This document shows positions 3,974 through 59,626 of a DNA stretch of 62,402 nt, piece after piece. Position 1 is the first letter of the stretch; every line of letters begins with the position of its first letter. The stretch is taken from NCBI GenBank assembly GCA_016218585.1, contig JACRDK010000013.1:1-62402 (forward strand), written 5' to 3'. This stretch comes from Candidatus Doudnabacteria bacterium (GTDB taxonomy: Bacteria > Patescibacteriota > Doudnabacteria > UBA920). The notes beneath the pieces were generated by a model. It had not been told where the DNA came from. It ran no database searches and saw only the letters and a list, made by a program, of their open reading frames with translations. A program made the translations under genes and the position numbers.

Positions 3974-5185
3974 TTAAGGGACGAGAAAATTTTTTGTTTC
4001 CCCAATTTTTTTTAAGATGCTTTTGGCTTCAGTTTCGGTTGCCGGGCGGGGGGTTGAGTAGTTGTCTATTATTATAGGAATCAGTTCAATTTTTTCTAAG
4101 CTGGCCGGAACTTTTGGCCCCTGTAGGGCGGGGGAGGAAGTTTTAGATAGGCTGATTTTAAGGGCTAATCCTTCGCGCGTATCGCGGCTCCACATTTGGT
4201 CAAAAATAAAATTTCCTAAAGAGTAGAAAATGAATTTGGGATTAGGGCAATTCAACCTCTCCTGCCCTGCGGGCATCCTCCCCTCAGCAGGGGAGGAGGG
4301 GGTTGGACAATAACGCTCTATGGTTTGGATCCAATGCGGATGGGCGCCAATAACCATATCCGCGCCGGCATCTATAGCCGCATGGGCAAAGTCTGTTTGG
4401 GCTTGGTTTGGCTGGCGCACATATTCCACTCCGGCATGCATGGTAGCGACAATAAAATCACATTTAGATTTTAGATTTGAGATTGAAGATTTAAGATTTT
4501 TAACATCATCAATCCTTGCTACGTAATCGTTAACGGTTTTGCCACCGTCATTAATTGAAGAATAAGAGGCGCCAATAAAACATATTTTCAGACCATTTGC
4601 TTCTATTTCGGCCGGCGTCCAGGCCTGGTCTAAATTATTTCCGGCGCCAACCGTTTTTATGCTAAGGGAATTTAAATAATCTTTGGTATAAGCTAATCCT
4701 TTTAGTCCTTGGTCAAAAGCATGGTTGTTGGCTAAATTCAGAATTTGAAAATTATAATCTTTTAGGCCTGTGGTATATTTTTGCGGCGCGCCAAAAATCA
4801 GGCTGTGTCCGCCAATAACCGGGGAAGTGGAAGAGATAGGATTTTCAAAATTCCCAAAATTAAAATCCGTGGATTTTAAAATATCCGCCATTTGGCGGAA
4901 GGGCAGGGCGGGATCGTTTTGTTTTTTTATTTCCGCCGCCACATTTCGGCTTAGCATAATGTCGCCAACTGCCAGAAAGGTTGTTCCATTTTTCAAATCC
5001 GCTTGCTTGGCCATATCTTTCGCCTGGTCAAAATAAGTCTTTAGGGATTTGTCGGCTGCCGCTAATTGGTAAGTTGTTTTATTGGAGCCAAAGTACGGAT
5101 CGCGGTTGTGTTGAATAAGGCCAAGGACAATGGCTAGGGCAAAGAGAACACCAATAATTATTTTTGTTATGTTGGAACGAGACAT
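3974..5185 (-). CDS. CapA/PGA_cap family metallophosphatase-like protein, membrane anchored
   Basis: 403 aa with an N-terminal TM and motifs VGDIM, NLANNHAFD, TMHAGVEY, GAHPHW. It contains two repeat-derived in-frame segments (4253-4306 and 4463-4502). Confidence 0.8.
   Translation of the reverse strand: MSRSNITKIIIGVLFALAIVLGLIQHNRDPYFGSNKTTYQLAAADKSLKTYFDQAKDMAKQADLKNGTTFLAVGDIMLSRNVAAEIKKQNDPALPFRQMADILKSTDFNFGNFENPISSTSPVIGGHSLIFGAPQKYTTGLKDYNFQILNLANNHAFDQGLKGLAYTKDYLNSLSIKTVGAGNNLDQAWTPAEIEANGLKICFIGASYSSINDGGKTVNDYVARIDDVKNLKSSISNLKSKCDFIVATMHAGVEYVRQPNQAQTDFAHAAIDAGADMVIGAHPHWIQTIERYCPTPSSPAEGRMPAGQERLNCPNPKFIFYSLGNFIFDQMWSRDTREGLALKISLSKTSSPALQGPKVPASLEKIELIPIIIDNYSTPRPATETEAKSILKKIGETKNFLVP
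4253..4306. repeat. CAACCTCTCC palindromic element, copy a (inside the capA-like CDS)
   Basis: caacctctcctgccctgcgggcatcctcccctcagcaggggaggagggggttgg. Near-identical to 31263-31318, with shorter relatives at 57278 and 58978. Confidence 0.85.
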
Positions 5186-5311
5186 TGGAAATTAACCTAA
5201 TTATTCTAATTTTTAATTGACCTAAAAAAGTCCCAAATCCTAAATTCCAAGACCGACATTGGGTATTGGTTCTTATTTAGAATAATTAGAGCAATTAGGT
5301 TAATTAGAAAT

Positions 5312-6409
5312 TTACCTGCTTAAAATGTATTGTTGTCCCCCCATATTCCTTATCTTCCCTTTCATTTCCAAAAATGTCAAGGCGGTAATGGCCATGCTTG
5401 TGGTTAGTCCTGACTGTTTGATTAAATTATTTATAGAAATGGGTTCGTAATTAATTAACTTGAGAAGGACGGTTTCTTCCGCGCTGTCGCCAAAAAGAGT
5501 TTGCGTTTGTTGCTGAACTGGCAGGGTTTTTAGATTTAAATCATCCAAAATGTCTGCTGCTGTTGTGGCGGGCTTGGCTCCCATTTTCAGCAGGTTATTT
5601 GGCCCCTGGCTTTGCGGAGAATAAATTGGCCCGGGCACTGCATAGACTGTGCGATTCTGGTCTAGCGCGTGATTGGCGGTAATTAGAGTGCCGCTTTGCA
5701 AATCACATTCCACAACCAATGTCGCCACCGACAGTCCGGAAATAATCCGGTTTCTGGCGACAAAATTTTGTTTAAAGTTTGGCGTGCCGATTGGATATTC
5801 CGAAAGCAGCGCTCCTCCGGCATCAATAATTTGCCTGGCCAGCAGCGCGTGGTGTTTGGGATACAGACTTTTTTCGTCCAGTCCTCCGCCAAGCACGGCA
5901 ATGGTGCGGCGATTTTTCTTTACTGCAATTTCGTGCGCGGCAGAATCTACGCCAAAAGCCATACCGGAAACGATTATCGCCCCGGCGTCAACTAAAGGCT
6001 CTACTAATTGGGGGATTACAGTTCGCCCGTAATTGGTAATTTTTCTGGTTCCAACTACTGCCAGGTCCAGCTCTTCAGGGCTATTCATTGAACCTTTATA
6101 GTAGAGTAGTGGCGGGCTTTTTGGAATTTCCAAAAGCAGCTTGGGGTAGTTTGCATCTTTCTGGCTTAAGAGTTTTATGCCCTCGGCTTTTAATCTATCC
6201 GCCTCTTCTTTTAAATTTATTTTTGGCCGCAAGGACGTAAAAGCCAGAATGGCTGCGCTGTCCACCCCGGTTTTTAGCAGCTCTGCTTGCGGCGCTTCAA
6301 AGGCATCTTTATAAGTAGAGAATTGTTTTGAAAGTTGCTCGAGCCGGGCAGGGCCTAATTGCGGAGTTAAATTAAGCCCGTGTAAATATAAGGAATCTTC
6401 AAAAATCAT
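5312..6409 (-). CDS. dprA: DNA-processing protein DprA (Smf)
   Basis: 365 aa. Rossmann-like core (VVGTRKITNYG, SGMAFGVDSAAH, RNRIISGLS, AVPGPI) plus a C-terminal winged-helix-like tail. Confidence 0.9.
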   Translation of the reverse strand: MIFEDSLYLHGLNLTPQLGPARLEQLSKQFSTYKDAFEAPQAELLKTGVDSAAILAFTSLRPKINLKEEADRLKAEGIKLLSQKDANYPKLLLEIPKSPPLLYYKGSMNSPEELDLAVVGTRKITNYGRTVIPQLVEPLVDAGAIIVSGMAFGVDSAAHEIAVKKNRRTIAVLGGGLDEKSLYPKHHALLARQIIDAGGALLSEYPIGTPNFKQNFVARNRIISGLSVATLVVECDLQSGTLITANHALDQNRTVYAVPGPIYSPQSQGPNNLLKMGAKPATTAADILDDLNLKTLPVQQQTQTLFGDSAEETVLLKLINYEPISINNLIKQSGLTTSMAITALTFLEMKGKIRNMGGQQYILSR

Positions 6410-6439
6410 AAGTATTTAAAGGCCTTTTTAACCTTACCC

Positions 6440-6468
6440 TTGACAAAACGGCCAATTAGGAGTATAAT
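6440..6468 (+). promoter_or_regulatory. Consensus sigma-70 promoter (TTGACA-17-TATAAT)
   Basis: ttgaca at 6440-6445, an exact 17-nt spacer, and tataat at 6463-6468. No CDS lies downstream on this strand. Confidence 0.8.
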
Positions 6469-6474
6469 GTTATA

Positions 6475-6666
6475 TCAGAGTACATATTGTATTTATTACC
6501 CTATTTGCAAGTCGCAAGAACCGGTATCATCCCTCCTATTACTGGTTTAAGCATCAAGTAAAGGTTTGTAGACGATTGTTTGCAGCCTTTCACTTGCAGG
6601 TAGGGTTATAAATAGAATAAACACAGATATAACAAACGGATGAACACGGATAGCCGTGTTTTTTTC
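6475..6666 (+). ncRNA. Orphan small RNA of about 190 nt, class unknown (rod-like, 6S-like shape)
   Basis: It lies between the consensus promoter and an intrinsic terminator (aacacgg-ata-gccgtgtt + T7). 6490-6512 pairs with 6592-6614. The internal hairpin 6519-6547 has a CCCUCCU loop. No ORF is present. Confidence 0.55.
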
Positions 6667-6694
6667 GTGTTAATCCGTTATTAATCCGTGTTCA

Positions 6695-7234
6695 TCAGTT
6701 TTGAATGAATTTTTTGATTTCTAATTTAACTTTTGGAAAAACTTCTTCATTTAACCTGTGCAGCTCTTCTTCGCTAAAATTTTGTAAGACAAAACTTTCT
6801 GTGGGAGGGATTTTTTTATCGGCCCTGTTTTCTACGCCTAAGCGAATGCGGTGAAAATCTTTGGTCCCTAACTCGTCAATAATATTTTGCACCCCGTTAT
6901 GTCCGGCAGCGGAAGAAGAACTGGTCTCCCGAATTTCCGCAAATGGCAAGTCGACTTCGTCGTGGATGACAAGCAGGTCTTTTTGGTAATCAACTTTATA
7001 AAAATCGCCAATTGCTTTAACCGCTTGCCCGGAAAGGTTCATAAAAGTTTGCGGCTTTACCAAAAAAACTTTTTGCGATCCAAAATGCAGCTCGCAAATT
7101 TGGGCGTTAAATGAACTTTGGCAATTTATTGCCTGAATATCTTTTAAAAAATATTCAATAGCCATAAATCCCGCGTTATGACGGGTGTTGTGATATTTAG
7201 TTCCAGGATTGCCTAAGCCAATGATTAACTTCAC
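6695..7234 (-). CDS. pth: Peptidyl-tRNA hydrolase
   Basis: 179 aa; the N-terminus MKLIIGLGNPGTKYHNTRHNAGF is typical of Pth. Confidence 0.95.
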   Translation of the reverse strand: MKLIIGLGNPGTKYHNTRHNAGFMAIEYFLKDIQAINCQSSFNAQICELHFGSQKVFLVKPQTFMNLSGQAVKAIGDFYKVDYQKDLLVIHDEVDLPFAEIRETSSSSAAGHNGVQNIIDELGTKDFHRIRLGVENRADKKIPPTESFVLQNFSEEELHRLNEEVFPKVKLEIKKFIQN

Positions 7235-7341
7235 CCGGGTATATATTTCTATTTAAAAACGAGTAGGCCGTTGTTAAAGTTTAATTAGTATTTTAGTGTC
7301 CCGCAGAGCCTATTTCTACGGAGTTTATGCTTATAGTATAA

Positions 7342-7362
7342 CAAAAAACCGCCTAAGCGGTC
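7342..7362 (-). terminator. Rho-independent terminator after der
   Basis: The minus strand reads accgcttaggcgg followed by a T-run. Confidence 0.6.
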
Positions 7363-7401
7363 TATTGTTTTATCCTACAAGCTAAAAGCTATTAGCTTTT
7401 A

Positions 7402-8784
7402 TTAGGCCTTGTCCTTGCCTTTAAGTTTTAAAGTAATAGGAGTTCCCCAAAAATCCAAGTCTTTAATAATGCCGTTTTCCAGGAACTTTCTAAATTGCAT
7501 TGAAATTGCCGCCGGGTGATTAACCAAAAGTTCAAACATGGGCGGGTTGGTGGCAATTTGGCGCAAACCGGTGACTTTTGGCTTTTTTTGATCGCGCAAT
7601 AATTTGGGCGGGTTGATTTTCATTTTTTTCGCCAGAAAAGCGGTTAGAGTTTCCTGGTCAATTTCTTTATGGCGGGCTTCAAAAATCGGCTTTATAGCCG
7701 CAAGCGCTTCGTCGAGTCCTTCTCCGGTAACCGCTGAGACAAAGAATGCCGGGCACATCCAGAGAAAGGAAAAATGGTGGGAAATATAATCGCGCAGAGT
7801 TTTGTATTCGTCATCAGTCTCGCCGCGCCCGTCCCATTTGCCGCCTTTTTTCCCGCGGTTGTCTTTGGTGTAGGCGTCCATTTTGTTTACTAAAATAATG
7901 CAGCCTTTTTCCATGGCAAAAATTTCATTGGCCACGCGCTGGTCCTGTTTGGTTATTTCTTCATTGGCATCAATAACAAAAAAACAAATATCCGACCGGC
8001 GGATGGCTTTAAATGTTTGAAAGCCGCTAAAAACATCAGGCTGCGGCTGGCGGTGTTCTTTTTTCTTTAGACCGGCAGTATCAATAAAAATATAATTTTC
8101 TCCGCCGATTTCCAGCTGGCTGTCTATGGCGGTGCGGGTAGTGCCCGGAATAGGGGAGACAACCACGCGCTCTTCTTTTAAGATGGCGTTAAAAATACTG
8201 CTCTTGCCGACGTTAGGTTTCCCGACAATGCTTACGGCAATGCCTTTTTTTTCTTCGGTTTTTTTATCCGCCAAACCTAATTTTTTTAGAGTGTCGGTAA
8301 CTTCTTCCAAAAAGTCTCCCAAGCCCAAGCCGGTGAGAGAGGAAACAGTAAAGACATTTTTTATGCCAAGCTTTTGGAACTCTGCTTTTTTGGCTTCGTG
8401 GATTCTGGCTGAGTCCAGTTTGTTAATTACCAGAAGCAATGGTTTTTTGGTGTTGCGGAATTTTTTTAAGCTGGTTTGGTCAATGGCCGCCAGCGGTTCT
8501 TTGCCGTCCACCACAAAAGCAATAATGTCCGCTTCCTGCACGGCCACGTCTATTTGTTTGAGCAGGCTAAGTTCCAGCTGGTCGCCGCTGCCGGCGGAGA
8601 GTCCGGCGGTGTCTACTAAAGTAAAATCAACGCCGCTCCAGGTGGTGTCGATGTATTGGCGGTCGCGCGTGGTTCCGGCAATATCAGAAGTTACCGCCAG
8701 CGGTTTGCCGGCAATTTTGTTCATAAACGTAGATTTTCCGGCATTCGGCTGTCCGACAATGGCTACAAGTGGCAAGTTATTCAT
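7402..8784 (-). CDS. der: Ribosome-associated GTPase Der (EngA)
   Basis: 460 aa with two tandem GTPase domains (GQPNAGKST, GKPNVGKSS; DTAG twice; NKLD/NKMD) and a KH-like C-terminus. Confidence 0.95.
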   Translation of the reverse strand: MNNLPLVAIVGQPNAGKSTFMNKIAGKPLAVTSDIAGTTRDRQYIDTTWSGVDFTLVDTAGLSAGSGDQLELSLLKQIDVAVQEADIIAFVVDGKEPLAAIDQTSLKKFRNTKKPLLLVINKLDSARIHEAKKAEFQKLGIKNVFTVSSLTGLGLGDFLEEVTDTLKKLGLADKKTEEKKGIAVSIVGKPNVGKSSIFNAILKEERVVVSPIPGTTRTAIDSQLEIGGENYIFIDTAGLKKKEHRQPQPDVFSGFQTFKAIRRSDICFFVIDANEEITKQDQRVANEIFAMEKGCIILVNKMDAYTKDNRGKKGGKWDGRGETDDEYKTLRDYISHHFSFLWMCPAFFVSAVTGEGLDEALAAIKPIFEARHKEIDQETLTAFLAKKMKINPPKLLRDQKKPKVTGLRQIATNPPMFELLVNHPAAISMQFRKFLENGIIKDLDFWGTPITLKLKGKDKA

Positions 8785-8808
8785 AAATGTCTCTCTTTAA
8801 AAGGATTA

Positions 8809-10486: not shown

Positions 10487-10539
10487 CTACCTGCCTTACC
10501 AAGAGAATTTATTAAAGTGTTTATATATTTGCTAAGTCA

Positions 10540-13319: not shown

Positions 13320-13365
13320 GAAAATATAAGATTTAGGAATTAGGAATAACGAATTAGGAATAAAA

Positions 13366-13403
13366 ATTATGGATTAACCTCTCGGTTAACCCATAATTTT
13401 TTT
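13366..13403 (+). terminator. Rho-independent terminator after the HIT gene
   Basis: attatggattaacc-tctc-ggttaacccataat followed by T7. Confidence 0.8.
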
Positions 13404-13712: not shown

Positions 13713-13795
13713 CTAAAATATTGAAGTATGAATCAGGAATTATGAATCTGGGGAACCTTAATTCGTAATTCTTGATTCCTAATTCTCGAAAAGAT

Positions 13796-14240: not shown

Positions 14241-14338
14241 ACCGCGGAAAGGACGCGGAACTTCACGCGGAATAGCGCGGAAGTTTAGATTAACTTATAG
14301 GTGCGGATTTTCCGCGATTTTCCGCGTTAGATTCCGTG
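14241..14338. repeat. Word-repeat hairpin spacer (CGCGGAA x4, then TTCCGCG x2)
   Basis: ccgcggaaaggacgcggaacttcacgcggaatagcgcggaag ... ttttccgcgattttccgcg. The same word occurs inside tkt at 56660-56690 and 56809-56845. Confidence 0.8.
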
Positions 14339-15801: not shown

Positions 15802-16698
15802 ATGAGAAACCTGATGTTTGTCGCCATTGTGTTGATGGTGATGTTGCCTGTTTCTAACTGCTCGGCTCAGGAAAATGGAGCCGAACAGTTTGTGATGTTT
15901 GTGGCAGAACAAAACGGCGGCCTGATGGCCATGATGCAGGACAACGGGTATAGCCCGTGGCTCTACAGCCAGTTGAGCCGCGAGCCTGGGGGAGAGTTAC
16001 TATCGTGCGAGGAACAAAGCTTCGAGATTCGAAGCATTAGTCCCGGACAAAAGCTTTTCATGCAGAAGGGCGCCAAGGTGGACCGTGGACGTCTGTCTCA
16101 CTGCCTCGCAGTGGAGAACAGGCTGTTTGGCAAAACCAAAGGAGCGGTTTTACCCGCAACCTTGGCATCGAATTCTCCTGCGCCTAGCGTGCAGCCGCCT
16201 GTGTCCGCATCACCTGGGCCTTGCGAGGAAACGAAGGCGAAGGTTGTGTTCCTTGAGGTGTCCATTGACAACATCAACCAACAGCTCAAGGAGGCTCTGG
16301 CCGAGAACGACAAGTTAAAAGCTGAGCTTGGTAAAGCCAAGCAGCGGCAGAGTCATGGTGCGGAATCTGCAACTGATGGCCAAACCTTTTTTGCGGGTTG
16401 TGTGATAGCTGCAACTTTTTTCGGTCTGGTTGCTGTTGCGATTTCTGGGGTAAGCCTTTGGCGCAAGCAGCATTTTAGAACGTCGTGGGCAGCCGGAATA
16501 GAATACTGGCTCTTCGGTCCAGTATGCAGGCATTCGACCAAAGTAAAAAAGTGGCTGAGGTTGAGTTTTCAAATCAGCCCAGATTTACCCAGCACGACGG
16601 GACGAACTTTACTAGAGACCCATTCGGTCGGCAGACTTGCGGCCGAATGTGGTGCCTCGGTTTCTCCGGAACAGCCAACTGAAAAGGTGGCTGTGTGA
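15802..16698 (+). CDS. Bitopic envelope protein A: signal peptide, ecto-domain, Pro-rich linker, coiled coil, TM, cytoplasmic tail
   Basis: 298 aa. Strong SD (aggagg, 8 nt before ATG) and signal peptide MRNLMFVAIVLMVMLPVSNCSA. TM FFAGCVIAATFFGLVAVAISGV. G+C-richer than its neighbours. I recognise no family. Confidence 0.7.
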   Translation: MRNLMFVAIVLMVMLPVSNCSAQENGAEQFVMFVAEQNGGLMAMMQDNGYSPWLYSQLSREPGGELLSCEEQSFEIRSISPGQKLFMQKGAKVDRGRLSHCLAVENRLFGKTKGAVLPATLASNSPAPSVQPPVSASPGPCEETKAKVVFLEVSIDNINQQLKEALAENDKLKAELGKAKQRQSHGAESATDGQTFFAGCVIAATFFGLVAVAISGVSLWRKQHFRTSWAAGIEYWLFGPVCRHSTKVKKWLRLSFQISPDLPSTTGRTLLETHSVGRLAAECGASVSPEQPTEKVAV

Positions 16699-16706
16699 AT
16701 AGTTTC

Positions 16707-16799
16707 AACATCTAGCAGACTTGATTTAATGCACTGCCTCGCGTGGCCCTGCATTTAACAGGGTCTTGCCGATGGCATCAGAACAATCTTGTCTCAACA
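16707..16799 (+). repeat. 93-nt 3-prime-flank repeat, copy 1
   Basis: Differs from 19769-19860 by 2 substitutions and 1 indel. It contains the hairpin ggccctg-catttaa-cagggtc. Confidence 0.9.
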
Positions 16800-16884
16800 T
16801 ATGCAATGGTGGTTCTTTTGGAATTTTTTCCTAGGGAGCCGCTTTTTGTTTATAAAAAAATAACCCACAAATAATTTGGGGTAT

Positions 16885-16929
16885 AAAAAAAGCGAGGCAG
16901 GAAAAGTCCGGTTGGGACGATTCCTGCCT
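16885..16929 (-). terminator. Rho-independent terminator after the PEP-CTERM gene
   Basis: The minus strand reads aggcaggaa..ttcctgcct followed by cgcttttttt. Confidence 0.7.
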
Positions 16930-16951
16930 GCTGTTGCTGTAGTCCTGTGGA

Positions 16952-18349
16952 CTACTGAAGTTGATTCTGCCGGCGTTTGCGGGCAAGCGCGAGGGCACAG
17001 AGCCCGGCGCCGAGCATCGCGAGTGTGGCCGGCTCGGGGACTTCGGATTTCGCGGTGTCGAAATTGGCTCTTGCCGATACCGTATCGGATGTCCAATTGC
17101 TTACCGTAAACTTGATCGTCGTGAGCGCGCTAGCTAGTTGCATAGGCGCAAAAGTGTTGTCAGCGGCCGCGTTGCAGCTGGTGCTTCCGCCTGCCGGTCC
17201 GGTACAACCGAGTCCGGAAATATTCGCTCCCAAATCTACTGCACCCGGATTGCCAACGGTAGTCATGCTGCCCTTTGTTACTGAGGGTACGTGAGAACCG
17301 AAGGAACTCCCGGTTACCGCCATTGAGGCGTGAAGCCCGGTGATGTCCTTCGGGTCAAAGTACAGGAGGATGGTCAAGATGTTGTCGACCGGAGCGCCGC
17401 TTGCGTTGAAGCTGGCAATGGAGACGGACACGTTGCTGAAATCTGCTCCACCGAATATCCCGGTAATCGTAACGAGTCCTCCAACGAGGGTGTCGTTGAT
17501 TATCCAATTCCCCGGGGTTCCAGTAACGTTGACATTCTGAGCCGGCCCGCCGTTCTGAGAGAACTGCACGAGAGGGTTCAGAGGTGTCGCTGTCGCCGGG
17601 ACGGCTATGGCCGTAATGGCGAGGACAATCATGAGAGCACAGGCGCATTGCTTGATGGAAAGCTTCGGCATTTTGTGCCGGTTCTTCCAGAGCAACAGGC
17701 CCAGAAGGCCGAGGCCCATCAGCGCGTAGCTGTTGGGTTCAGGGACAGGGGACCCACCGAGCTGAAAGTCGGTGAACGTTGCCTGCTGCCCTCTGTGATC
17801 AGCGTTGACGCTGCGCAAGCGCAGCAGCAACTGTTCGAACTCGCCGAATGAACCCACGTTGGTCTTGAGGAATGTTCCTTGGGTAAGCACTCCATCAAAC
17901 ACGTGGTCGACGCTGCCGTCGGCGTAGAGCTTGGTTGAGACTGTGTGGGGTGTTCCCAAAGCTCGTGGCGTGAGGTCGAAGTATACAACGTTCTCAACGG
18001 CTGGGCCGTTGTCGTAACGTTCGTAGCTAATGGCCGAACAGCACGCAAATGCGCTGCCGTCCTGGATCCGCGGGTTGTGGACGTTCGAGATGTTCTGCTG
18101 GAACATATCGATGTTCGCACCCGGGTTGTCCAGGTAAGAGAAGGAAGCCATGGTAAACATGGTGTTGAGCACCAGGTCCACCTCGGTGTTGCTGTTCTGG
18201 GTCAGGGTGATCGACCCATCTAGATTTACGACGGCGATTCCGTCGCCGACCACATCCCAGCTTTGCCCTTTCCAGGCAATCGTGGTCGCACTTGCCACCA
18301 TACAGATGGCGAATGCCAAAATCAAAAAAACGCTCGCGCGTTTTGTCAT
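16952..18349 (-). CDS. Tandem PEP-CTERM pre-protein fusion (two signal-peptide plus PEP-CTERM modules in one ORF)
   Basis: 465 aa with SD aggagg. Module 1 is aa 1-226 and ends VPEPNSYALMGLGLLGLLLWKNRHK. Module 2 starts at Met227 (17671) with its own signal peptide and ends VPEPATLAMLGAGLCALALARKRRQ. No stop codon separates them. Confidence 0.8.
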   Translation of the reverse strand: MTKRASVFLILAFAICMVASATTIAWKGQSWDVVGDGIAVVNLDGSITLTQNSNTEVDLVLNTMFTMASFSYLDNPGANIDMFQQNISNVHNPRIQDGSAFACCSAISYERYDNGPAVENVVYFDLTPRALGTPHTVSTKLYADGSVDHVFDGVLTQGTFLKTNVGSFGEFEQLLLRLRSVNADHRGQQATFTDFQLGGSPVPEPNSYALMGLGLLGLLLWKNRHKMPKLSIKQCACALMIVLAITAIAVPATATPLNPLVQFSQNGGPAQNVNVTGTPGNWIINDTLVGGLVTITGIFGGADFSNVSVSIASFNASGAPVDNILTILLYFDPKDITGLHASMAVTGSSFGSHVPSVTKGSMTTVGNPGAVDLGANISGLGCTGPAGGSTSCNAAADNTFAPMQLASALTTIKFTVSNWTSDTVSARANFDTAKSEVPEPATLAMLGAGLCALALARKRRQNQLQ

Positions 18350-18657: not shown

Positions 18658-19743
18658 ATGCACAAGATGTTTAAGATGTCACGCCTTGCGGTCGTGTTGA
18701 CCGTATTGGCGAGTTACGCATTTGCGGACGACCGTGTCCGCATTGCTACGGTCGAACTTGGGCCAACACAAGCCTTGGAAAACAATCACCGACACTGGGA
18801 TGAGTTGGGATCGATTGAACACCAAGACGGCAGTCTGTGGAAGCCCTGTGAATACTCCACTGTATCGGACAAGGAGTTTTATGTCCCATTACAGCCTCAG
18901 CGCAACAGAGTTAAGGCTTTGGCGTTGATCGCCGAGTCCAGAAACTGCACTGCGAAACCGATTTCGCCCGTTGCTTTGGCTTCTACGCCACCGGCCAAGC
19001 CGCTCGTTCAAACACAGCCCGCAAAGACCGAGGTTCAGGCCAAGGTTCAGCCGGCTCCGATCCAGGCCAAGTATCAACCGTCCGTGTTGACGCTTACGCC
19101 TCGGGCGAGAGAGACTGCGCTGGAAAAAGAGCTTAGCGCTTACCGCGCTCGGTTGAATTCCGCCGACGACGCTCGGGTTCAGATGATCAGGGCGATGAAG
19201 GATGATCTGGAACAAAACTACATCCGCAAGGATGGAGTTGTTCCAAAAGAACAACACGAACGCGACCTGGCAAAAGCCAGACTCATCGGCACCTGGTCGA
19301 CAGCATCCGTTGGTTTGATCTGCGCGATTTTGGGTTTTTTCGGCAACGAAAGGCTTCGTAACCGGAACATAAGAAAGCGCAGTCGAAAAGCTGGGCATCA
19401 CAATCAAGAAACCAGTCAAGAAGATGGTGTTCTGTTTTTTCTGAAAGAACCTCAAACTGACAATTTCGCTGAGCCGGTGTTCGTTGCGAGGTACGCCAAA
19501 AGCCATCACGACATTCCAGAGCTACCCGATCTGAAATATCGTGGCAATGGTTTTCCTATCACGCCTTCGGACGGACTAACGGCCGTCCAGATGCAACATT
19601 TTGCGTTGCATCGCAAGGTCAGGGCTTGGATGGAAAACAACCCAAGCGTCAACGCTGAAGTCGTTGCCATCAGCGACCAGAACAGTTCCGTCAGAACTCG
19701 TAGTTCCGAAAGGCGCACTGACAAACGCACCGCAATTGCCTAA
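18658..19743 (+). CDS. Bitopic envelope protein B (same architecture as protein A)
   Basis: 361 aa: signal peptide, Pro/Gln-rich linker (PAKPLVQTQPAKTEVQAKVQPAP), coiled coil, TM (WSTASVGLICAILGFF) and a 130-aa tail. The start may instead be ATG 18667 or 18676. Confidence 0.7.
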   Translation: MHKMFKMSRLAVVLTVLASYAFADDRVRIATVELGPTQALENNHRHWDELGSIEHQDGSLWKPCEYSTVSDKEFYVPLQPQRNRVKALALIAESRNCTAKPISPVALASTPPAKPLVQTQPAKTEVQAKVQPAPIQAKYQPSVLTLTPRARETALEKELSAYRARLNSADDARVQMIRAMKDDLEQNYIRKDGVVPKEQHERDLAKARLIGTWSTASVGLICAILGFFGNERLRNRNIRKRSRKAGHHNQETSQEDGVLFFLKEPQTDNFAEPVFVARYAKSHHDIPELPDLKYRGNGFPITPSDGLTAVQMQHFALHRKVRAWMENNPSVNAEVVAISDQNSSVRTRSSERRTDKRTAIA

Positions 19744-19768: not shown

Positions 19769-19860
19769 AACATCAGCAGACTCGATTTAATGCACTGCCT
19801 CGCTTGGCCCTGCATTTAACAGGGTCTTGCCGATGGCATCAGAACAATCTTGTCTCAACA
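19769..19860 (+). repeat. 93-nt 3-prime-flank repeat, copy 2
   Basis: See 16707-16799. Confidence 0.9.
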
Positions 19861-25257: not shown

Positions 25258-25404
25258 ATTAGTGACGTAAGGCGAGCAGTCTTGCTTGCAAGGCAAGCGA
25301 GCTTAAACTGCGAAAAGAAGTTTGCTCCTTGGGGGCCCCGAGATATCTTTATTTATCCACTGGTGAATTTTAAATTTTGTGATACAATTATTTTTACAAC
25401 TCAT

Positions 25405-25560
25405 CTGCGATTAGTTGCCCCGAGAACGGGGTTTGGTTTAGGAAAGTCGGGTTTAATTCCCGCGCTGTGCCGCAACTGTAAAGCCTAAAAAATTTAGGAC
25501 AAGCCAGGCACTACCAGCTAATTGTACGACGGTCTCTTTCCCCGAGCAGGGAACAGGGAT
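25405..25560 (+). promoter_or_regulatory. Cobalamin (B12) riboswitch
   Basis: B12-box core aggaaagtcgggtttaattcccgcgctgtgccgcaactgtaa, then aagccaggcac. This fits the GGGAA..GGTG.AA.TCC..CCCGC.ACTGTAA..GCCA pattern. It lies directly upstream of 25593. Confidence 0.75.
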
Positions 25561-31012: not shown

Positions 31013-31585
31013 ATGATTTTTTACTTTATAATAATTTTAGCAGTCGCATCCCGTTTTGTTCCTCATATGCCTAATGTTGGTTTAATAACCGCGTTGGCAA
31101 TGTTTTCCGCCGCCAATATGGACTGGAAAAAGTCGGTTGGCATTACTTTGGCCGCCAGATTCATTAGCGATATTTTCTTAGGTTTTTTTGCGTGGCCGTT
31201 AATGGTTGCGGTTTACGCAGCTCATCTGGTTGGAATTTTGTTTGGCGTTTGGATTAAAAATTCAACCTCTCCCGCCCTGCGGGCATCCTCCCCTCATAAG
31301 GGGAGGGACGGGGAGAGGATGCAGTATCGTTGGGTAAAAATTATTTTCTCTTCTTTGGCTTCTTCCGCAATTTTCTTTTTGGTAACTAACTTCGCTTTTC
31401 TTTACGCTGAGTACCCGCACAATTTTGCAGGAGTAATGTTGGCCTATGCTAACGGCCTTCCTTTTCTGCGCGGCACTATGGCAGGGGACATAGCTTATTC
31501 GCTGTTGTTGTTTGGATCCTTTGAGTTGGCTATGCACTTTAAATCAAAAACGTCAGAAACTAAATTCCTAATCCCTAATTCCTAA
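31013..31585 (+). CDS. Multi-pass membrane protein (S-component-like; possible vitamin/B12 uptake)
   Basis: 190 aa, about 5 TM, with N-terminal RFVPHMPNV. It carries repeat copy b in frame (STSPALRASSPHKGRDGERM). Function is inferred from gene context only. Confidence 0.5.
   Translation: MIFYFIIILAVASRFVPHMPNVGLITALAMFSAANMDWKKSVGITLAARFISDIFLGFFAWPLMVAVYAAHLVGILFGVWIKNSTSPALRASSPHKGRDGERMQYRWVKIIFSSLASSAIFFLVTNFAFLYAEYPHNFAGVMLAYANGLPFLRGTMAGDIAYSLLLFGSFELAMHFKSKTSETKFLIPNS
31263..31318. repeat. CAACCTCTCC palindromic element, copy b (inside the membrane-protein CDS)
   Basis: caacctctcccgccctgcgggcatcctcccctcataaggggagggacggggagagg. Confidence 0.85.
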
Positions 31586-31595
31586 TTCTTTTCCT

Positions 31596-35285: not shown

Positions 35286-35301
35286 AATTCAATAAACACA
35301 A

Positions 35302-35337
35302 AAGCCCGCTTCGATTCGTCGGAGCGGGCTTTTTTGT
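35302..35337 (+). terminator. ndk terminator hairpin (repeat copy 1)
   Basis: gcccgcttcgattcgtcggagcgggc plus a T-run. The same 30-nt core recurs at 36025-36055. Confidence 0.85.
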
Positions 35338-36021: not shown

Positions 36022-36057
36022 AAGGCCCGCTTCGATTCGTCGGAGCGGGCTTTTGTT
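36022..36057 (+). terminator. Duplicated terminator hairpin (repeat copy 2)
   Basis: Identical core gcccgcttcgattcgtcggagcgggc plus tttt. Confidence 0.85.
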
Positions 36058-44295: not shown

Positions 44296-44328
44296 AAACC
44301 CCGTCCCGATAACTCGGGACGGGGGTTT
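44296..44328 (+). terminator. Rho-independent terminator after groEL
   Basis: aaaccccgtcccga-taac-tcgggacgggggttt. Confidence 0.8.
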
Positions 44329-48624: not shown

Positions 48625-48684
48625 AAACAAAGTTTTTGATGCAATACATCTTAACTCCTAAATCTTAAATCCTAAATTACTACT

Positions 48685-48855: not shown

Positions 48856-48972
48856 ACTTGAATCATGAATTTTGAATCAGGAATTATGGTCTAAAACTCT
48901 CTTAACCTGAATTTCAGGCAGGGAGTTTTTGTTTCTCTTAATTCTTAATTCCGCATACTTAATTCTTATTTT

Positions 48973-53756: not shown

Positions 53757-53864
53757 TTTTTTTGAGTTAATTTACTCTTATTATAGCACTTTATTTAAAT
53801 TTCTATTAATTCAGCAGGACTTGATATAGTTACATATTTTTGGTAATATTAGACAAGTAAATTC

Positions 53865-53938
53865 GCGGGATTCGTATAGTGGTAGTACACTAGCCTTCCA
53901 AGCTGGTGGGACGGGTTCGATTCCCGTATCCCGCTCCA
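53865..53938 (+). tRNA. tRNA-Gly (anticodon UCC), CCA encoded
   Basis: Acceptor GCGGGAT/ATCCCGC, anticodon loop CTTCCAA, T arm ACGGG-TTCGATT-CCCGT, then TCCA. Confidence 0.9.
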
Positions 53939-54088
53939 GCGAGTCAAACTCGCTTTGATGAGCGCAGGCCAGTCTGACTGGCCCAGGGTCAGTCTTTCTG
54001 AACAACTATTGACTGGCTAATCTAAAAAAGGTTGTTCTGTGACTGACAAAAACATGAACTTATTTATATATATATTTCAATAGCGGTT

Positions 54089-54589: not shown

Positions 54590-54618
54590 TTGACAAAAAA
54601 ACGTAATCCTACTAAACT
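54590..54618 (+). promoter_or_regulatory. Promoter (TTGACA-17-TAAACT) for the SAM riboswitch-metK unit
   Basis: Hexamers with a 17-nt spacer, 20 nt upstream of the aptamer. Confidence 0.55.
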
Positions 54619-54637
54619 AAGTTTAATTGAATAAGTT

Positions 54638-54737
54638 TTTATCCAGAGAGCAGTTAGGGTTCTAGCCCGATGATCTGCCAGCAACCCTGAGGAAACTCGA
54701 ATGGGTGCTAAATCTAGCCCCACGCGGGAAAGATAAT
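54638..54737 (+). promoter_or_regulatory. SAM-I (S-box) riboswitch aptamer
   Basis: ttatccagagagcagttagggttctagcccgatgatctgccagcaaccc...ggtgctaaatctagcc...gaaagataa matches the conserved S-box core. It lies upstream of metK. Confidence 0.85.
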
Positions 54738-54745
54738 TTACATCT

Positions 54746-54769
54746 CATCCGCTTTGGCGGATTTTTTTG
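54746..54769 (+). terminator. Riboswitch expression-platform terminator
   Basis: atccgc-tttg-gcggat followed by T7. Confidence 0.8.
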
Positions 54770-54867
54770 TGCCATCCTTACCCCGAGCATTTTTATTTAG
54801 GGGTAACACAGGACGATTAGGGCATTATTTAAATAATATTAATAAAAAATTATTAAGCAGAGAATTT

Positions 54868-56070
54868 ATGAAATCATCAATTCAAAAAAAACTGTTTACT
54901 TCCGAATCGGTGACCGAAGGTCATCCGGACAAAATGGCAGACCAGATTAGCGATGGCGTCTTGGATGCTATTTTAAAAGAAGATCCAAAGGGTCGCGTGG
55001 CCGTGGAAACCTTGCTGACTAACGGCGTTTGCGTCGTGGCCGGTGAAGTTACTACAAAAACTTATGTAGATATACAGAAAGTGGCCCGCGCCATTATTAA
55101 AGACATTGGTTATACCAACGCTGAATATGGTTTCCATTGGGAGACCTCCGGCGTTATGGTTGCCATAAAAGAGCAATCAAGTGATATTGCTATGGGCGTT
55201 GATGCATTTGAAAAGAACAAGAAAGGGGAAATTGTTAAAGAAGATTTGGAAAAAATTGGCGCCGGCGACCAGGGCTTAATGTTTGGTTTTGCCACAGACG
55301 AAACTAAAGAATTAATGCCTTTGCCAATTGTTTTGGCACATAAATTGACTCATAGATTGGCAGAGGTCAGAAAGAAAAACATTATTAAAGGTTTACGCCC
55401 TGACGGTAAAAGCCAGGTAACCGTTGAATACAATGGCGACAAGCCAAAGCGAGTGCATACGGTATTAATTGCCGCGCAGCACGATGCCGAAATTGACAGT
55501 GAAAAATTGAAAGCGGAAATTATTAAGCATGTAATAAAAAAAGTTATTCCAGGACAGTTATTGGATAAAAATACCAGAATTTTAGTTAACTCTACCGGCA
55601 GGTTTGTTATTGGTGGACCGCAAGGGGACACAGGGCTCACGGGTAGAAAAATTATTGTTGATACTTACGGCGGTTACGCCAGGCACGGCGGCGGGTGCTT
55701 TAGCGGTAAAGATCCGTCTAAGGTGGATCGTAGCGGCAGCTATATGGCTCGTTATGTTGCTAAAAATTTAGTGGCTGCCGGATTGGCTAAAAAATTAGAA
55801 GTGCAAATCGCTTATGCTATTGGCGTGCCGGAGCCTTTGTCAGTACGCGTTGATTCCTTTGGTACGGGAAGATACGGCGACGATAAAATTGCGGAAATTG
55901 TCTCCTTGGTTTTTGACTTAAGACCAGGAATGATAATTAAGAATTTAGGTTTACGCAAGCCAATTTATCGCGCTACTGCCGCTTATGGACATTTTGGCAG
56001 AAACGACCTTAAGCTTCCTTGGGAAAAGACCGATAAAGTAAAGGATATAAAAAAAGTTTTAAAGAAATAG
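54868..56070 (+). CDS. metK: S-adenosylmethionine synthetase
   Basis: ATG 54868: [29 protein letters not shown].., [22 protein letters not shown]. The track N-extension (54754) covers the terminator. Confidence 0.96.
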
Positions 56071-56182
56071 TTGAAAGTTAAAAAACACCGCATTTGCTTG
56101 GGCAAATTGCGGTGTTTCTTTTTACTGGGACTGGTTTCTGATAGAATTAGGACAGGTGTTATGAATCGATAAAATATAAATT

Positions 56183-56497
56183 ATGGAACGCGATAATTTA
56201 AATTACTCAAGGTTTTTAGAAGAAGCTAAGGCTTTAGAAATTGAGCTGGCTGAGATAGATGCAGAAATTGGCGGTTTAGAGGAAAAAATGGCAAATATTG
56301 AAGGAAAAAGAAGTCGTAGCAAAGGAGATATACTTAAGCACTCTATGTTGGATGTGCAACTGGTTGATATATTATCGCAATTGGAAGATTTAAGGATTCG
56401 CAGAGGCGACCTGATAAATATAATTGTCGCAAAAAAGAATTCCTATGGAGTTGTTGATGAAGGCTTAAAAGATTTTGATTCAAAATACAAAAATTAA
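56183..56497 (+). CDS. Hypothetical coiled-coil protein
   Basis: 104-aa ORF, heptad-rich; no motif recognised. Confidence 0.45.
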   Translation: MERDNLNYSRFLEEAKALEIELAEIDAEIGGLEEKMANIEGKRSRSKGDILKHSMLDVQLVDILSQLEDLRIRRGDLINIIVAKKNSYGVVDEGLKDFDSKYKN

Positions 56498-56507
56498 ATT
56501 TAAAGAA

Positions 56508-58529
56508 ATGAAAAATAATTTAGAACAATTAGCAAAATTAGTTCGATATTATATTTTAACTTCCACTACCGCAGCGGGTAGCGGACATCCTTCTTCCAGT
56601 CTTTCAGCTACGGATATAATGGTTGAACTTATGTTTGGCAGATCGCAGAATAAAGCGGACGGTTCTGCAAACGCGGACGAACGCGGAAATGGCTCATTTT
56701 TTAGGGCCGATTTAAATGACCATGAGAATCCAAACAATGACAGATTAATTTTTAGTAAAGGTCACGCCAGCCCTTTGTTTTATGCATTATATGCGGCGGC
56801 TGGACAGGCGCGGAATGATGTGGAGCTTAACGCGGACGAACACGGAAAACTGCATCGGGCAATCGACCCGGAGGAGCTTCTTACTTTAAGAAAATTTACC
56901 AGCCGGCTGGAGGGACATCCTACTTCTTTATTTCCTTTTACTGAAGTGCCGACCGGTTCTTTAGGGCAGGGTTTGTCGGTTGGTGTTGGCATGGCGCTAA
57001 ACGCCAAGCTGGACGGGTTGGATTATAGAACGTATGTGCTTATGGGCGACAGTGAAATTGCGGAAGGAAGTGTTTGGGAGGCAATGGCTGTTGCATCTTT
57101 TTATAATTTAAATAATTTAGTAGCAGTCTTGGATATAAATCGTTTGGGGCAAAGAGGGGAAACTATGTTGGGGGTTAATACGGAAATTTATAAACAACGG
57201 GCAGAAAGTTTTGGTTGGAATGCAATTGTTATTGACGGCCATAATTTTGAGGAAATTACAAAAGCATTTGAAACAGCAACCTCTCCCCAGCCCTCCCCTC
57301 AGAAGGGGAGGGAGAAGCCCATAATGATTATCGCGCGAACAATAAAAGGCAAGGGGGTAAGTTTTATAGAAGATAAAGACGGTTGGCATGGTAAAGCGTT
57401 GTCGGCAGAAGAATTGAATAAGGCTCTGGCGGAGTTGGGTGAAGTTGATAAGTCTTTGGTTGGAGAGGTGGCATTACCTGAAAGAAGCAAGAGTCAAGAA
57501 TTAGGAATTAAGGTAGAAACACCCAAATTTACTAATTATGAAGAAGGGAAAAAGGTGGCAACGAGGAAGGCTTATGGAAATGCATTGGCAAATTTGGTTG
57601 AGGTTGACGAGCGAATTGTTGTTTTAGACGCGGAAACCTCTAATTCCACATATGCGGATTCAGTTAAGAAAAATCATCCGGAAAAATTTGTGGAATGTTT
57701 TATTGCCGAACAAAATATGGTTGGCATGGCATTAGGATTTTCCCGCCGCGGTAAAATACCCTTTGTCTCCACTTTTGCGGCTTTTTTGTCCAGGGCCTTT
57801 GACCAAATAAGAATGTCAGCCTTGGCTCAAAGCAATATTAAATTTATTGGTTCACACGCGGGAGTTAGCATTGGCGAAGACGGCAGCTCACAAATGGGTT
57901 TGGAAGAAATTGCAATGTTTAGAGCGCTTCCGGAGACTGTGGTTTTGTATCCTTCCGACGCAGTTTCTACCGAAAAGTTAGTTTTGGAAGCCGCAAAACA
58001 TAAAGGCAACGTTTATATTCAAACAACGCGTAAGGAAACAGAGATAATATACAGAAATGACAAGATCGACGGGAATGACAAGAATGAGCAAGAATTAATG
58101 CAGCAAGAATTCAAAATTGGGGGATCCTGCACGTTAAAATCATCAGATAAAGATATCGCAACGGTTATTGGCGCTGGGGTAACTTTGCACGAAGCCCTGG
58201 CCGCATATGAAGAATTGAAAAAAGAAGGAATTAATATTCGCGTTATAGATTTATACTCTGTTAAACCACTTGATTTGGAAAGTTTAAAAAAGGCCACGGT
58301 GGAAACCAAAAATATTATTGTGGTGGAAGATAATCACCACGAAGGCGGTATTTACGAAGCCGTCGCTGGCGCTTTGGCTTCAGTTGAAAGTTTATCAAGT
58401 TATAAAGTTGCAAGTTTATCAGTAACCAAACTGCCCCGCAGCGGCAAACCGGACGAGCTTTTGGCATACGAGGAAATAGATAAGAATGCTATAATTAAAT
58501 TAGTAAAAACAATCAATAATTCTATTTAA
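56508..58529 (+). CDS. tkt: Transketolase (single-chain) carrying three repeat-derived in-frame insertions
   Basis: ATG 56508. Motifs GSGHPSSSLS, SKGHASP, GDSEIAEGSVWEA and a C-terminal Pyr/TKC domain. Extra segments lie near 56640-56699, 56805-56861 and 57278-57320. Confidence 0.9.
   Translation: MKNNLEQLAKLVRYYILTSTTAAGSGHPSSSLSATDIMVELMFGRSQNKADGSANADERGNGSFFRADLNDHENPNNDRLIFSKGHASPLFYALYAAAGQARNDVELNADEHGKLHRAIDPEELLTLRKFTSRLEGHPTSLFPFTEVPTGSLGQGLSVGVGMALNAKLDGLDYRTYVLMGDSEIAEGSVWEAMAVASFYNLNNLVAVLDINRLGQRGETMLGVNTEIYKQRAESFGWNAIVIDGHNFEEITKAFETATSPQPSPQKGREKPIMIIARTIKGKGVSFIEDKDGWHGKALSAEELNKALAELGEVDKSLVGEVALPERSKSQELGIKVETPKFTNYEEGKKVATRKAYGNALANLVEVDERIVVLDAETSNSTYADSVKKNHPEKFVECFIAEQNMVGMALGFSRRGKIPFVSTFAAFLSRAFDQIRMSALAQSNIKFIGSHAGVSIGEDGSSQMGLEEIAMFRALPETVVLYPSDAVSTEKLVLEAAKHKGNVYIQTTRKETEIIYRNDKIDGNDKNEQELMQQEFKIGGSCTLKSSDKDIATVIGAGVTLHEALAAYEELKKEGINIRVIDLYSVKPLDLESLKKATVETKNIIVVEDNHHEGGIYEAVAGALASVESLSSYKVASLSVTKLPRSGKPDELLAYEEIDKNAIIKLVKTINNSI
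57278..57320. repeat. CAACCTCTCC palindromic element, copy c (inside tkt)
   Basis: caacctctccccagccctcccctcagaaggggagggagaagccc, encoding TSPQPSPQKGREKP. Confidence 0.85.
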
Positions 58530-58531
58530 AT

Positions 58532-59626
58532 ATGATTGATCAGGAAAAAATTGAAAAGTTGAGCAAAACCGCAAAAGAACTTGTTGCTCCGGGTAAGGGG
58601 ATTTTAGCCGCAGACGAAAGCATGAACACCGTAGGCAAGCGCTTTGCCCCAATCAATTTAGAAAATAATGAAGATAACCGCCGCGCTTTTAGGCATATGC
58701 TGCTTACCGCCCCCGGTGAGAGCGAATTTATTTCCGGAGTAATTCTGTTTGACGAAACCATTAGACAGAATGACTTGAGCGGTAAAAGTTTTGTTTCGGT
58801 AATGCAGGAAGGGGGAATAATCCCGGGAATTAAAGTTGACCAGGGTTTGGCTGATTTTGGAGACAGGGGAGAAAAAACAACCAAGGGGTTAGAGGGCTTG
58901 TCTGACAGGCTTAAAGAATATGTTTCTTTGGGAGCAAGGTTTGCTAAATGGAGGTCTGTAATAACTATTTCAAACGCAACCTCTCCTAGCCTCCCCTCAG
59001 AAGGGGAGGAATTGCCCAGTGACGGCAATATTTTGCAAAATGCCAAGGATTTGGCGGCTTACGCTTTGGTATGCCAGCAGGAGGGCTTGGTTCCAATTGT
59101 TGAGCCTGAAGTTTTATTAGATGGCAATCACAGTCTACAACAGGCAAAAGATGCCAGTACCAAGATTTTAACAGCCTTATTTAATGAATTAAACAATGCC
59201 GGCGTGGTTTTGGAAGCATTATTGCTTAAAACCAGCATGGTTCTACCTGGCAAAGACTTTGGCCAAAAGGCTTCAGCCGAAGAAATTGCTAAAAATACAT
59301 TGGAAGTTTTTAATGCAACAGTGCCGCATAATTTGGCCGGAATAATATTTCTGTCCGGAGGGCAGGGAGACGTTGAGGCTACAGAAAATTTGAACGCTAT
59401 AAACAGCCAGGGGACTCAGCCTTGGCCATTAACATTTTCATATGCTCGCGCTTTGCAGGACGCAGCCACAAAAACTTGGGCCGGAAAACCGGAAAATATG
59501 GATCAGGCACAGCAGGTATTTTTGCACCGCGCCAAAATGAACAGTTTGGCAACATTTGGGAAATACACTAAAGCTTTGGAAGAAGGGTTTGCTACTGCTT
59601 CCGGGGGCCAGGCCAGCCAGGATTAG
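58532..59626 (+). CDS. fba: Class I fructose-bisphosphate aldolase
   Basis: 364 aa with GKGILAADES, the region around Schiff-base Lys LLKTSMV, and YARALQ. Confidence 0.9.
   Translation: MIDQEKIEKLSKTAKELVAPGKGILAADESMNTVGKRFAPINLENNEDNRRAFRHMLLTAPGESEFISGVILFDETIRQNDLSGKSFVSVMQEGGIIPGIKVDQGLADFGDRGEKTTKGLEGLSDRLKEYVSLGARFAKWRSVITISNATSPSLPSEGEELPSDGNILQNAKDLAAYALVCQQEGLVPIVEPEVLLDGNHSLQQAKDASTKILTALFNELNNAGVVLEALLLKTSMVLPGKDFGQKASAEEIAKNTLEVFNATVPHNLAGIIFLSGGQGDVEATENLNAINSQGTQPWPLTFSYARALQDAATKTWAGKPENMDQAQQVFLHRAKMNSLATFGKYTKALEEGFATASGGQASQD
58978..59018. repeat. CAACCTCTCC palindromic element, copy d (inside fba)
   Basis: caacctctcctagcctcccctcagaaggggaggaattgccc, encoding TSPSLPSEGEELP. 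Confidence 0.85.

Follow-up and report, generated by a model that had tools for sequence, protein, structure and literature searches.

Four copies of a short palindromic repeat lie in frame inside four unrelated genes of a Candidatus Doudnabacteria bacterium, and I propose that they belong to a dispersed family of the repetitive extragenic palindrome (REP) or MITE (miniature inverted-repeat transposable element) type, one that is housed in frame in genes of the Candidate Phyla Radiation (CPR, or Patescibacteria), is old, is dynamic, and is constrained at the level of its nucleotides. This is probably the right reading, with real room left for others. The DNA in question, called here the window, is the whole stretch of 62,402 nt analysed (assembly GCA_016218585.1, contig JACRDK010000013.1, positions 1-62,402, forward strand). 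The closest homologs of its proteins are 72-79% identical to them, and those whose source is named come from Candidatus Doudnabacteria or Patescibacteria. According to the proposal, the copies would be GC-rich, nested palindromes of 36-59 nt in which the 5' box (G)CAACCTCTCC is followed by a fixed hairpin, with or without a small hairpin of free sequence in between; in complete copies an inverted box closes the whole into a Y. The repeat would be dispersed through Patescibacteria, where its frequency in genes is about that of random positions, and would have intergenic relatives elsewhere. Copies would persist where they fall in permissive loops, keep the frame, and are read in frames that give peptides rich in Pro, Ser, Gly, and Glu, as the surviving copies are seen to do.

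The four copies share one plan: (G)CAACCTCTCC, then a linker or a small hairpin, then CCTCCCCT-N4-AGGGGAGG. The box CAACCTCTCC occurs exactly at 4253, 31263, 57277, and 58977, once ahead of each hairpin and at no other place in the window, and CCTCCCCT is likewise confined to the four copies. The complete hairpin, CCTCCCCTCANNAGGGGAGG, is found exactly four times (4277-4296, 31287-31306, 57292-57311, and 58990-59009), always on the plus strand, where chance predicts none (100 shuffles). The first two copies, which agree at 94% over 48 nt, are long forms and add a small hairpin, GCCC-TGC-GGGC, between the box and the main hairpin and an inverted copy of the box at the 3' end. Copies 3 and 4 are short forms that consist of the box and the main hairpin only. 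Copy 1 (4253-4306, plus strand, in a CapA-like gene of the minus strand; peptide PTPSSPAEGRMPAGQERL) is made up of the 5' box at 4253-4262, hairpin 1 at 4264-4274, hairpin 2 (CCTCCCCT-CAGC-AGGGGAGG) at 4277-4296, and an imperfect 3' inverted box, GGGGGTTG, at 4298-4305. In copy 2 (31263-31321, plus strand, in a gene for a DUF6580 membrane protein; peptide TSPALRASSPHKGRDGERM) the same parts lie at 31263-31272, 31274-31284, and 31287-31306, and the 3' inverted box, GGGGAGAGGATG, at 31310-31321. Copy 3 (57277-57314, plus strand, in transketolase; peptide (A)TSPQPSPQKGRE) has its box at 57277-57286 and hairpin 2 at 57292-57311, the stem reaching 9 bp over 57291-57312. Copy 4 (58977-59012, plus strand, in class-I fructose-bisphosphate aldolase; peptide (A)TSPSLPSEGEE) has them at 58977-58986 and 58990-59009. 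A sequence-only reading of this DNA had already reported four copies with a common box and hairpin. All four exist and the shared parts match exactly, but the last two begin at 57277 and 58977 rather than at 57278 and 58978.

The elements are 58-70% G+C, as against 43% for the window, and occur about once every 15 kb. The predicted stability of their hairpins ranges from -16 to -37 kcal/mol. Both long forms are predicted to fold as RNA into a Y-shaped three-way structure, with energies between -32 and -35 kcal/mol for copy 1 (z near -3) and of -37.3 kcal/mol for copy 2 (z -4.1). The sequence CCTCTCC has mirror symmetry, which suggested a conceivable triplex (H-DNA-like) pairing between the box and hairpin 2.

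The genes that house the copies encode a CapA / PGA_cap family metallophosphatase-like protein (3974-5185, minus strand; Pfam PF09587, E = 9e-65), a DUF6580 membrane protein (31013-31585, plus strand; PF20221, E = 8e-36), transketolase (56475-58529, plus strand; Pfam, and by alignment to human TKT in the Protein Data Bank, E = 1e-165), and class-I fructose-bisphosphate aldolase (58532-59626, plus strand; PF00274, E = 2e-128). Around each copy the open reading frame (ORF) is uninterrupted, its frame kept and without a stop, as had been claimed. In the aldolase, the residues tspslpsege meet a gap of 10-11 residues in the three solved-structure alignments shown, and in the transketolase tspqpspqkg meets a gap of 10 residues in human TKT. 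The insert in the DUF6580 protein is about 20 residues long, and most homologs are without the segment. That in the CapA-like protein is about 18 residues and sits within a lineage-specific, Cys-flanked loop, CP...C.NP, which is missing from the basal form (EKY-NGKYIF). The figure of 12-20 added residues given by the sequence-only reading is slightly high for the two enzymes, whose homologs do lack the residues, as it stated: they are missing from the aligned solved structures and from most homologs. Of the two outcomes that it named as fatal to its view, homologous residues in orthologs from unrelated phyla and an element found nowhere else in the genome, neither came about.

In the AlphaFold2 model of the aldolase (mean confidence, pLDDT, of 88.5), the insert is a coil between the strand at residues 137-145 and the helix at 164-183, with pLDDT below 50 at 150-157. 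In that of the transketolase (673 residues), it lies between the helix at 247-258 and the strand at 272-277, with pLDDT below 50 at 262-266. In these models both inserts fall in low-confidence loops between elements of secondary structure. The peptides, which include TSPSLPSEGEE, TSPQPSPQKGRE, SSPAEGRMPAGQERL, and TSPALRASSPHKGRDGERM, are rich in Pro, Ser, Gly, and Glu and are probably disordered. Many DUF6580 proteins in the databases (P0366-P0374, P0379, P0383) comprise just the N- or the C-terminal half and stop or start where the element lies, which suggests either out-of-frame insertions that have split the gene or a protein that is naturally in two parts.

The element is not peculiar to this genome. 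A scan of one genome per species with the pattern AACCTCTCC-N(1-30)-CCTCNCCT-N4-AGGNGAGG, which itself fixes the sequence of the box, matched at least 119 stretches. Among the matches listed, to which the counts of this and the next two paragraphs refer, are metagenome-assembled genomes (MAGs) of Patescibacteria labelled Saccharibacteria, Doudna-, Kuenen-, Komeili-, Falkow-, and Peribacteria, along with Bacillota (Faecalibacterium, Oscillospiraceae, Megasphaera), Chloroflexota, Bacteroidota, Gallionella (Pseudomonadota), and Ignavibacteria. In addition, 67 viral contigs have the element. Single MAGs carry several copies. The copies have an architecture in common. The fixed hairpin has the consensus CCTC(C/T)CCT-N4-AGG(G/A)GAGG, and its variable pair is Watson-Crick in 138 of 148 distinct copies (70 C-G, 68 T-A; p = 4e-32). 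Where the spacer between box and hairpin is at least 12 nt, it forms a stem of at least 5 bp in 71% of cases, as against 4% of shuffled spacers, and does so with 78 distinct spacer sequences. Complete copies end in terminal inverted repeats, (A)GCAACCTCTCCC / GGGAGAGGTTGC(T). A scan of metagenomes for the long form found only three further copies, one in an intergenic stretch and two in ORFs assigned by eye from their translations, without a family search, to purD and ligA. A search of the window and 17 loci at the gathering scores of Rfam 15 found no match at the elements, only tRNAs, riboswitches, and a pan motif. One viral contig (L172, from IMG/VR) carries six co-oriented copies of the Bacillota type with covarying hairpin 1 between 3265 and 9515, each in a gap 3' of a plausible plus-strand ORF (as read from the ORF list), a position like that of a terminator or processing signal. 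In Faecalibacterium prausnitzii a copy sits between two convergent ORFs.

Where the copies lie differs sharply between CPR genomes and the rest. Counting as ORFs any long stop-free spans, which are not curated annotation, 25 of 42 CPR copies (60%) are deep within a long ORF, close to the 67% of random positions in the same loci (p = 0.33). Only 19 of 90 non-CPR copies (21%) are so placed, as against 73% of random positions (p = 1e-24), and the remaining 71 lie outside ORFs. The difference between the two groups is significant (p = 2e-5). The family is not specific to CPR, with intergenic relatives in Bacillota, Chloroflexota, Bacteroidota, Pseudomonadota, and phage contigs. Known enzyme families account for 18 of the 19 CPR host ORFs tested. 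The hosts include PfkB kinase, Ddl, GT2, TopA, a class-I aminoacyl-tRNA synthetase, PurL (with two copies), GuaA, SerRS, [FeFe]-hydrogenase, MgsA, PyrF, Dus, BtuR, and others.

The constant plus-strand orientation noticed by the sequence-only reading is true of the window, where four copies on one strand are a 1-in-8 event by chance, but is not a property of the element: in CPR genomes 18 copies run with their host ORF and 11 against it. Frame use is biased. From three to five of the six frames of an element are free of stops, depending on the copy. The opposite-orientation copies use the PSPxEGRxGERL frame in 10 of 11 cases (p = 0.012), and the same-orientation copies divide themselves among the frames as TSP 10, NLS 6, and a third 2. 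Such a bias is to be expected of translated segments, certain peptides being better tolerated than others, and from it I infer that the inserts are translated. A ribosome might instead bypass the hairpin, or the mRNA might lose it, leaving the insert untranslated. Stable hairpins of -16 kcal/mol and below inside coding sequence lend the idea some appeal, but the copies show neither take-off and landing codons that match nor features of an intron, and there is no reason for a frame preference in a segment that is never read, and no reason for all four window copies to be in frame and free of stops. It is very improbable.

How old are the copies? Those in the transketolase and aldolase genes (tkt and fba) recur at the same codons in locus L004, whose proteins are only 75% and 66% identical to those of the window. 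The fba copy is found additionally in L003 and L001, and the CapA copy has orthologs in L196 and L197. Host proteins in genomes with orthologous copies are 61-76% identical. Such distances at shared codons, together with the divergence of loops described below, imply that the copies are old. As judged by these alignments, those in the window are old and orthologous and not recent junk.

Within these copies the nucleotides have been kept to a degree that the surrounding gene has not. The tkt copy matches that of L004 at 38 of 39 nt, including 12 of 13 third codon positions, as compared with 71% (49% of third positions) for the rest of the gene. The fba copy matches at 36 of 39 nt, including all 13 third positions, as compared with 66% (45% of third positions). 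Over 11 ortholog pairs the box has diverged by 5.5%, the stems by 9%, the linker with hairpin 1 by 15%, and the loops by 43%, and flanking third codon positions differ by about 50%. The contrast between loops and box plus stems gives p = 2e-8 by Fisher's test, though the pairs are phylogenetically non-independent and p-values from them are indicative only. The fba copy of L001 shows a compensatory change from C-G to T-A. It might be supposed that these are ordinary lineage-specific loop residues under protein selection, the likeness of the DNA being a coincidence of composition. Peptides are indeed conserved in orthologs (ATSPQPSPQKGRE is identical in the window and L004), but coincidence would have to place the same 36-59 nt in four unrelated genes when none is expected, conserve nearly every third position, and permit an inverted copy in one ortholog to specify another peptide at that very site (see below). 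The notion is scarcely credible. Moreover, the box and stems are kept whichever frame is read and whichever strand is the coding one, so selection on the peptide is not the explanation. Something appears to act on the nucleotides themselves, either selection for hairpin and box or homogenisation between copies.

If so, one may ask whether the element is selfish DNA at all, or rather a cis-acting nucleic-acid signal useful to the host, with the peptide a tolerated by-product. It might be the DNA site of a structure-binding protein, or an RNA hairpin that affects the stability or translation of mRNA, and it would lie in genes because CPR genomes are gene-dense. There is precedent in the REPs of E. 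coli, which bind gyrase and IHF. Box and stems that diverge by 5-9% when loops and flanking third positions diverge by 43-50%, an architecture with covarying hairpins conserved across phyla, the six co-oriented phage copies at the 3' sides of ORFs, and the F. prausnitzii copy between convergent ORFs all speak for it. However, orientation relative to transcription is not kept, as seen in the 18 to 11 split and in one inverted ortholog, which argues against a strand-specific RNA role. GC skew shows no more than a weak association (p = 0.054), the nearest relatives of L004 carry no element in tkt or fba, no Rfam family matches, and one copy per 15 kb is a low density for such a signal. I regard this alternative as serious but unlikely. 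Its more pointed version is that the module of box, hairpin 1, and hairpin 2 is a cross-phylum signal under direct purifying selection, perhaps the DNA site of a structure-specific protein or a signal in recombination or repair. If that were true, gene-dense CPR genomes would have been forced to house it in essential genes, and CPR enzymes by the hundreds would be obliged to carry disordered peptide loops with a sequence dictated by a function of DNA or RNA and not of the protein. That claim is doubtful. A rule of replication-strand polarity was considered and rejected: among CPR copies the strand of the element is G-rich in 30 of 46 cases and C-rich in 16, the tally behind the p-value just given and one that includes the four non-independent window copies, and both orientations occur inside single 8-kb loci.

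The element is dynamic. The DUF6580 ortholog of L053 (76% amino acid identity) has an element of equal length at the site of copy 2, but inverted as a whole: it matches the reverse complement of copy 2 at 56 of 59 nt (by hand count on the alignment) and encodes a different peptide, PTSPRPSPYEGRVPAGRERL. Both strands of one element can thus be read through the same protein loop. In a GT2 gene of L004, an insert of 25 residues consists of two elements in inverted orientation, with outer ends GCAACCTCTC / GAGAGGTTGC, and the ortholog in L003 has no insert. This is a doublet like those called REPINs (REP doublets forming hairpins). The long forms also carry GCAACCTCTC... / ...GAGAGGTTGC, and the short forms lack the right end. 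Neighbour-joining trees of tkt and fba, which are crude, place insert-bearing sequences next to insert-free ones, and in L127, nearest to L004, both sites are empty. The loop in tkt is occupied in other CPR lineages by related GC hairpins, by a type in reverse orientation (VGEGLKPSPTG), by copies in whose loop a further hairpin is nested (L125, L128), and by AT-rich runs of the heptamer AATTTCA (NFKFQISNF). Gain, loss, and inversion of the element all occur. The empty tkt site of L127 (ASLSADK) encodes a perfect 8-bp palindrome, GCTTGTCA-GC-TGACAAGC, which could be chance or another hairpin that uses the same loop.

These observations raise the possibility that the element has homed repeatedly and independently to the same targets, so that copies I have called orthologous are young and alike for that reason. 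The insert-free neighbours, the variety of inserts in one tkt loop and one CapA loop across CPR, the opposite orientation at an identical DUF6580 site, and empty fba sites that read CCAAC(C/A), resembling the box, are all what such homing would leave. It is difficult, however, to see why young copies should differ by 43% in their loops and so little in their stems. The 3' tails of the fba copies decay stepwise, the window copy lacking 9 nt present in L004, as they would if one insertion had taken place long ago. The flanks of the four window sites have no target motif in common apart from the box itself, and the trees are too crude to bear much weight. I consider repeated homing improbable. 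The divergence of loops and the decay of tails favour inheritance of the shared sites.

By what route might a dispersed repeat of this kind spread? It would presumably move, as for REPs and REPINs, by a route based on hairpins or single strands or by recombination, with the enzyme encoded elsewhere. Several considerations weigh against the main proposal. No transposase has been tied to the element: the genes for Y1_Tnp transposases near copies in L004 and L012, similar to REP-associated tyrosine transposases (RAYTs), are flanked by different palindromes of their own, and when the window was searched by tblastn with a single Y1 transposase no homolog turned up, although no systematic search was made for insertion sequences (IS) with matching ends. 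There is no clear target-site duplication, only a possible CAAC direct repeat around the fba copy of L004 and nothing consistent at other sites. No recent gain or loss could be observed, since the window genome has no close relative in the databases (best hits 72-79%). Selfish DNA does not usually keep its nucleotides as the box and stems do here, so that a function for the host may be involved. Finally, translation is inferred, and the non-independence of the ortholog pairs and the use of stop-free spans as ORFs count here as well.

Other mechanisms were set aside. A link to RAYT or IS200-like transposases was rejected on the strength of the differing palindromes, in an examination of genome fragments only. 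The ends do not read as integron attC sites, for copies 1 and 2 fit RYYYAAC and copies 3 and 4 do not. Nor is the element a DNA uptake sequence: the box is restricted to the four elements, at a density far below that of known uptake sequences. The Y1_Tnp loci (L004 13318-14240, with REP-like palindromes GGAAGAtgggacacTTCTTCC, and L012 5660-6440, with TTGCAAAGATGACCATTGCAAC) are a separate REPtron-like system in CPR genomes.

The window holds other repeats, some of them in the same hosts. A second in-frame repeat, AACGCGGACGAACRCGGAAA, occurs at 56670-56689 and 56829-56848, and on the minus strand, with three mismatches, at 14309-14328. It encodes NADERG / NADEHG in two lineage-specific inserts of the transketolase (residues 45-63 and 114-131) that are missing from human TKT. 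AT-rich repeats, AATTCCTAATTC / GAATTAGGAAT, lie at 13328-13378, 13753-13786, 31556-31591, 48646-48679, 48933-48966, and 57483-57514, all intergenic except two, of which one forms the C-terminal tail of the DUF6580 ORF (KFLIPNS*) and the other lies in a linker of the transketolase (SKSQELGIKV). A direct repeat of 86 nt, 98% identical (16714-16799 and 19775-19860), flanks a 3-kb block that may be an inserted or duplicated segment. Its G+C content rises to 54% in the first part (16001-18000), and it contains a gene for a PEP-CTERM protein (16952-18349, minus strand) and an ORF at 18658-19743. Nearly identical, terminator-like palindromes, AAAGCCCGCTTCGATTCGTCGGAGCGGGCTTTT, stand at 35301-35333 and 36022-36054, with a weaker copy at 44296-44328. 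An S-adenosylmethionine (SAM) riboswitch (54636-54739) precedes the ORF at 54754-56070, which is taken, from synteny with related loci, to be a putative metK. Upstream of the DUF4430/DUF6580 genes, at a distance of a few kb, is a cobalamin riboswitch (25395-25536).

The element appears to be common in core enzymes of CPR, among them transketolase, aldolase, PurL, PurD, GuaA, tRNA synthetases, topoisomerase I, and DNA ligase. It explains part of the patchy variation in length of CPR proteins and their odd inserts of Pro, Ser, Gly, and Glu, which complicate annotation, alignment, phylogeny, and the prediction of structure. Orthologous sites with conserved box and stems and free loops allow a clean test, set up by nature, of whether DNA or RNA structure within coding sequence is subject to selection or gene conversion, and the intergenic relatives in several phyla point to an undescribed and widespread family of repeats or motifs.

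How does the element compare with known systems? The sequence-only reading likened it to the Rickettsia palindromic elements (RPEs), palindromic repeats found in frame in Rickettsia genes (Ogata et al. 2000, as related in PMC10969869 and PMC3733652). The likeness extends beyond a dispersed palindrome in frame in unrelated genes: both lie in housekeeping genes of reduced genomes, at positions compatible with the fold of the protein, and encode conserved peptides. But the present element is not of the RPE family. In the accounts of these sources, RPE-1 is about 100-150 bp (PMC10969869), and a CGTC tag marks the end of two short families, RPE-4 and RPE-6 (PMC3733652). The elements described here are 36-59 nt, begin with the box (G)CAACCTCTCC, and have neither GTAG nor CGTC at either end. 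They are hosted by Patescibacteria and not Rickettsiales, their family has intergenic relatives in several other phyla, and their box and stems are kept at the nucleotide level across proteins that are 61-76% identical. Judging from taxon and composition, homology to an RPE consensus is unlikely.

The comparison with REPs and REPINs is closer in form. Both consist of hairpins of 20-40 nt (20 nt in the case of hairpin 2) that bear a conserved tag on one side, in several copies per genome, as singletons and as inverted doublets like that of the L004 GT2 gene, and the non-CPR copies of the present element are mostly intergenic, 3' of the ends of ORFs. REPINs, too, persist at orthologous positions, and some REPs fall within ORFs, to which they contribute 20-30 residues (Di Nocera et al. 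2013, PMC3733652; Bertels and Rainey 2011, PMC3116915). Intragenic GTAG/CGTC REPs are known from Opitutus terrae and others (PMC3733652; reviewed in PMC10969869). The differences are that the conserved end is (G)CAACCTCTCC and not GTAG/CGTC, that an extra covarying hairpin stands between tag and main hairpin, that no RAYT is flanked by the element, the two RAYT-like genes examined carrying other palindromes, and that the extragenic location from which REPs take their name does not hold in CPR, with 25 of 42 listed copies, and all four in the window, in long ORFs.

With MITEs such as ERIC/RU, Correia, and Nezha (PMC10969869), the element shares small size, lack of autonomy, and, in complete copies, terminal inverted repeats, and MITEs occasionally fuse in frame with host ORFs (PMC10969869). 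The present elements differ in being smaller, with no clear target-site duplication and no parent IS, and their short forms lack the right end. Coding palindromes of organelles, in Nematomorpha mitochondria (PMC6649704) and as the RHE of sponges (PMC2800124), are also hairpin repeats in coding sequence with both arms translated, but are organellar, much longer or unrelated in sequence, and presumably of other mechanism. The sequence-only reading knew of no such element in CPR-like genomes, and literature searches found no description of one for CPR or Patescibacteria. What the window presents is the behaviour of RPEs in a new family and a new phylum, with a three-part architecture of its own.

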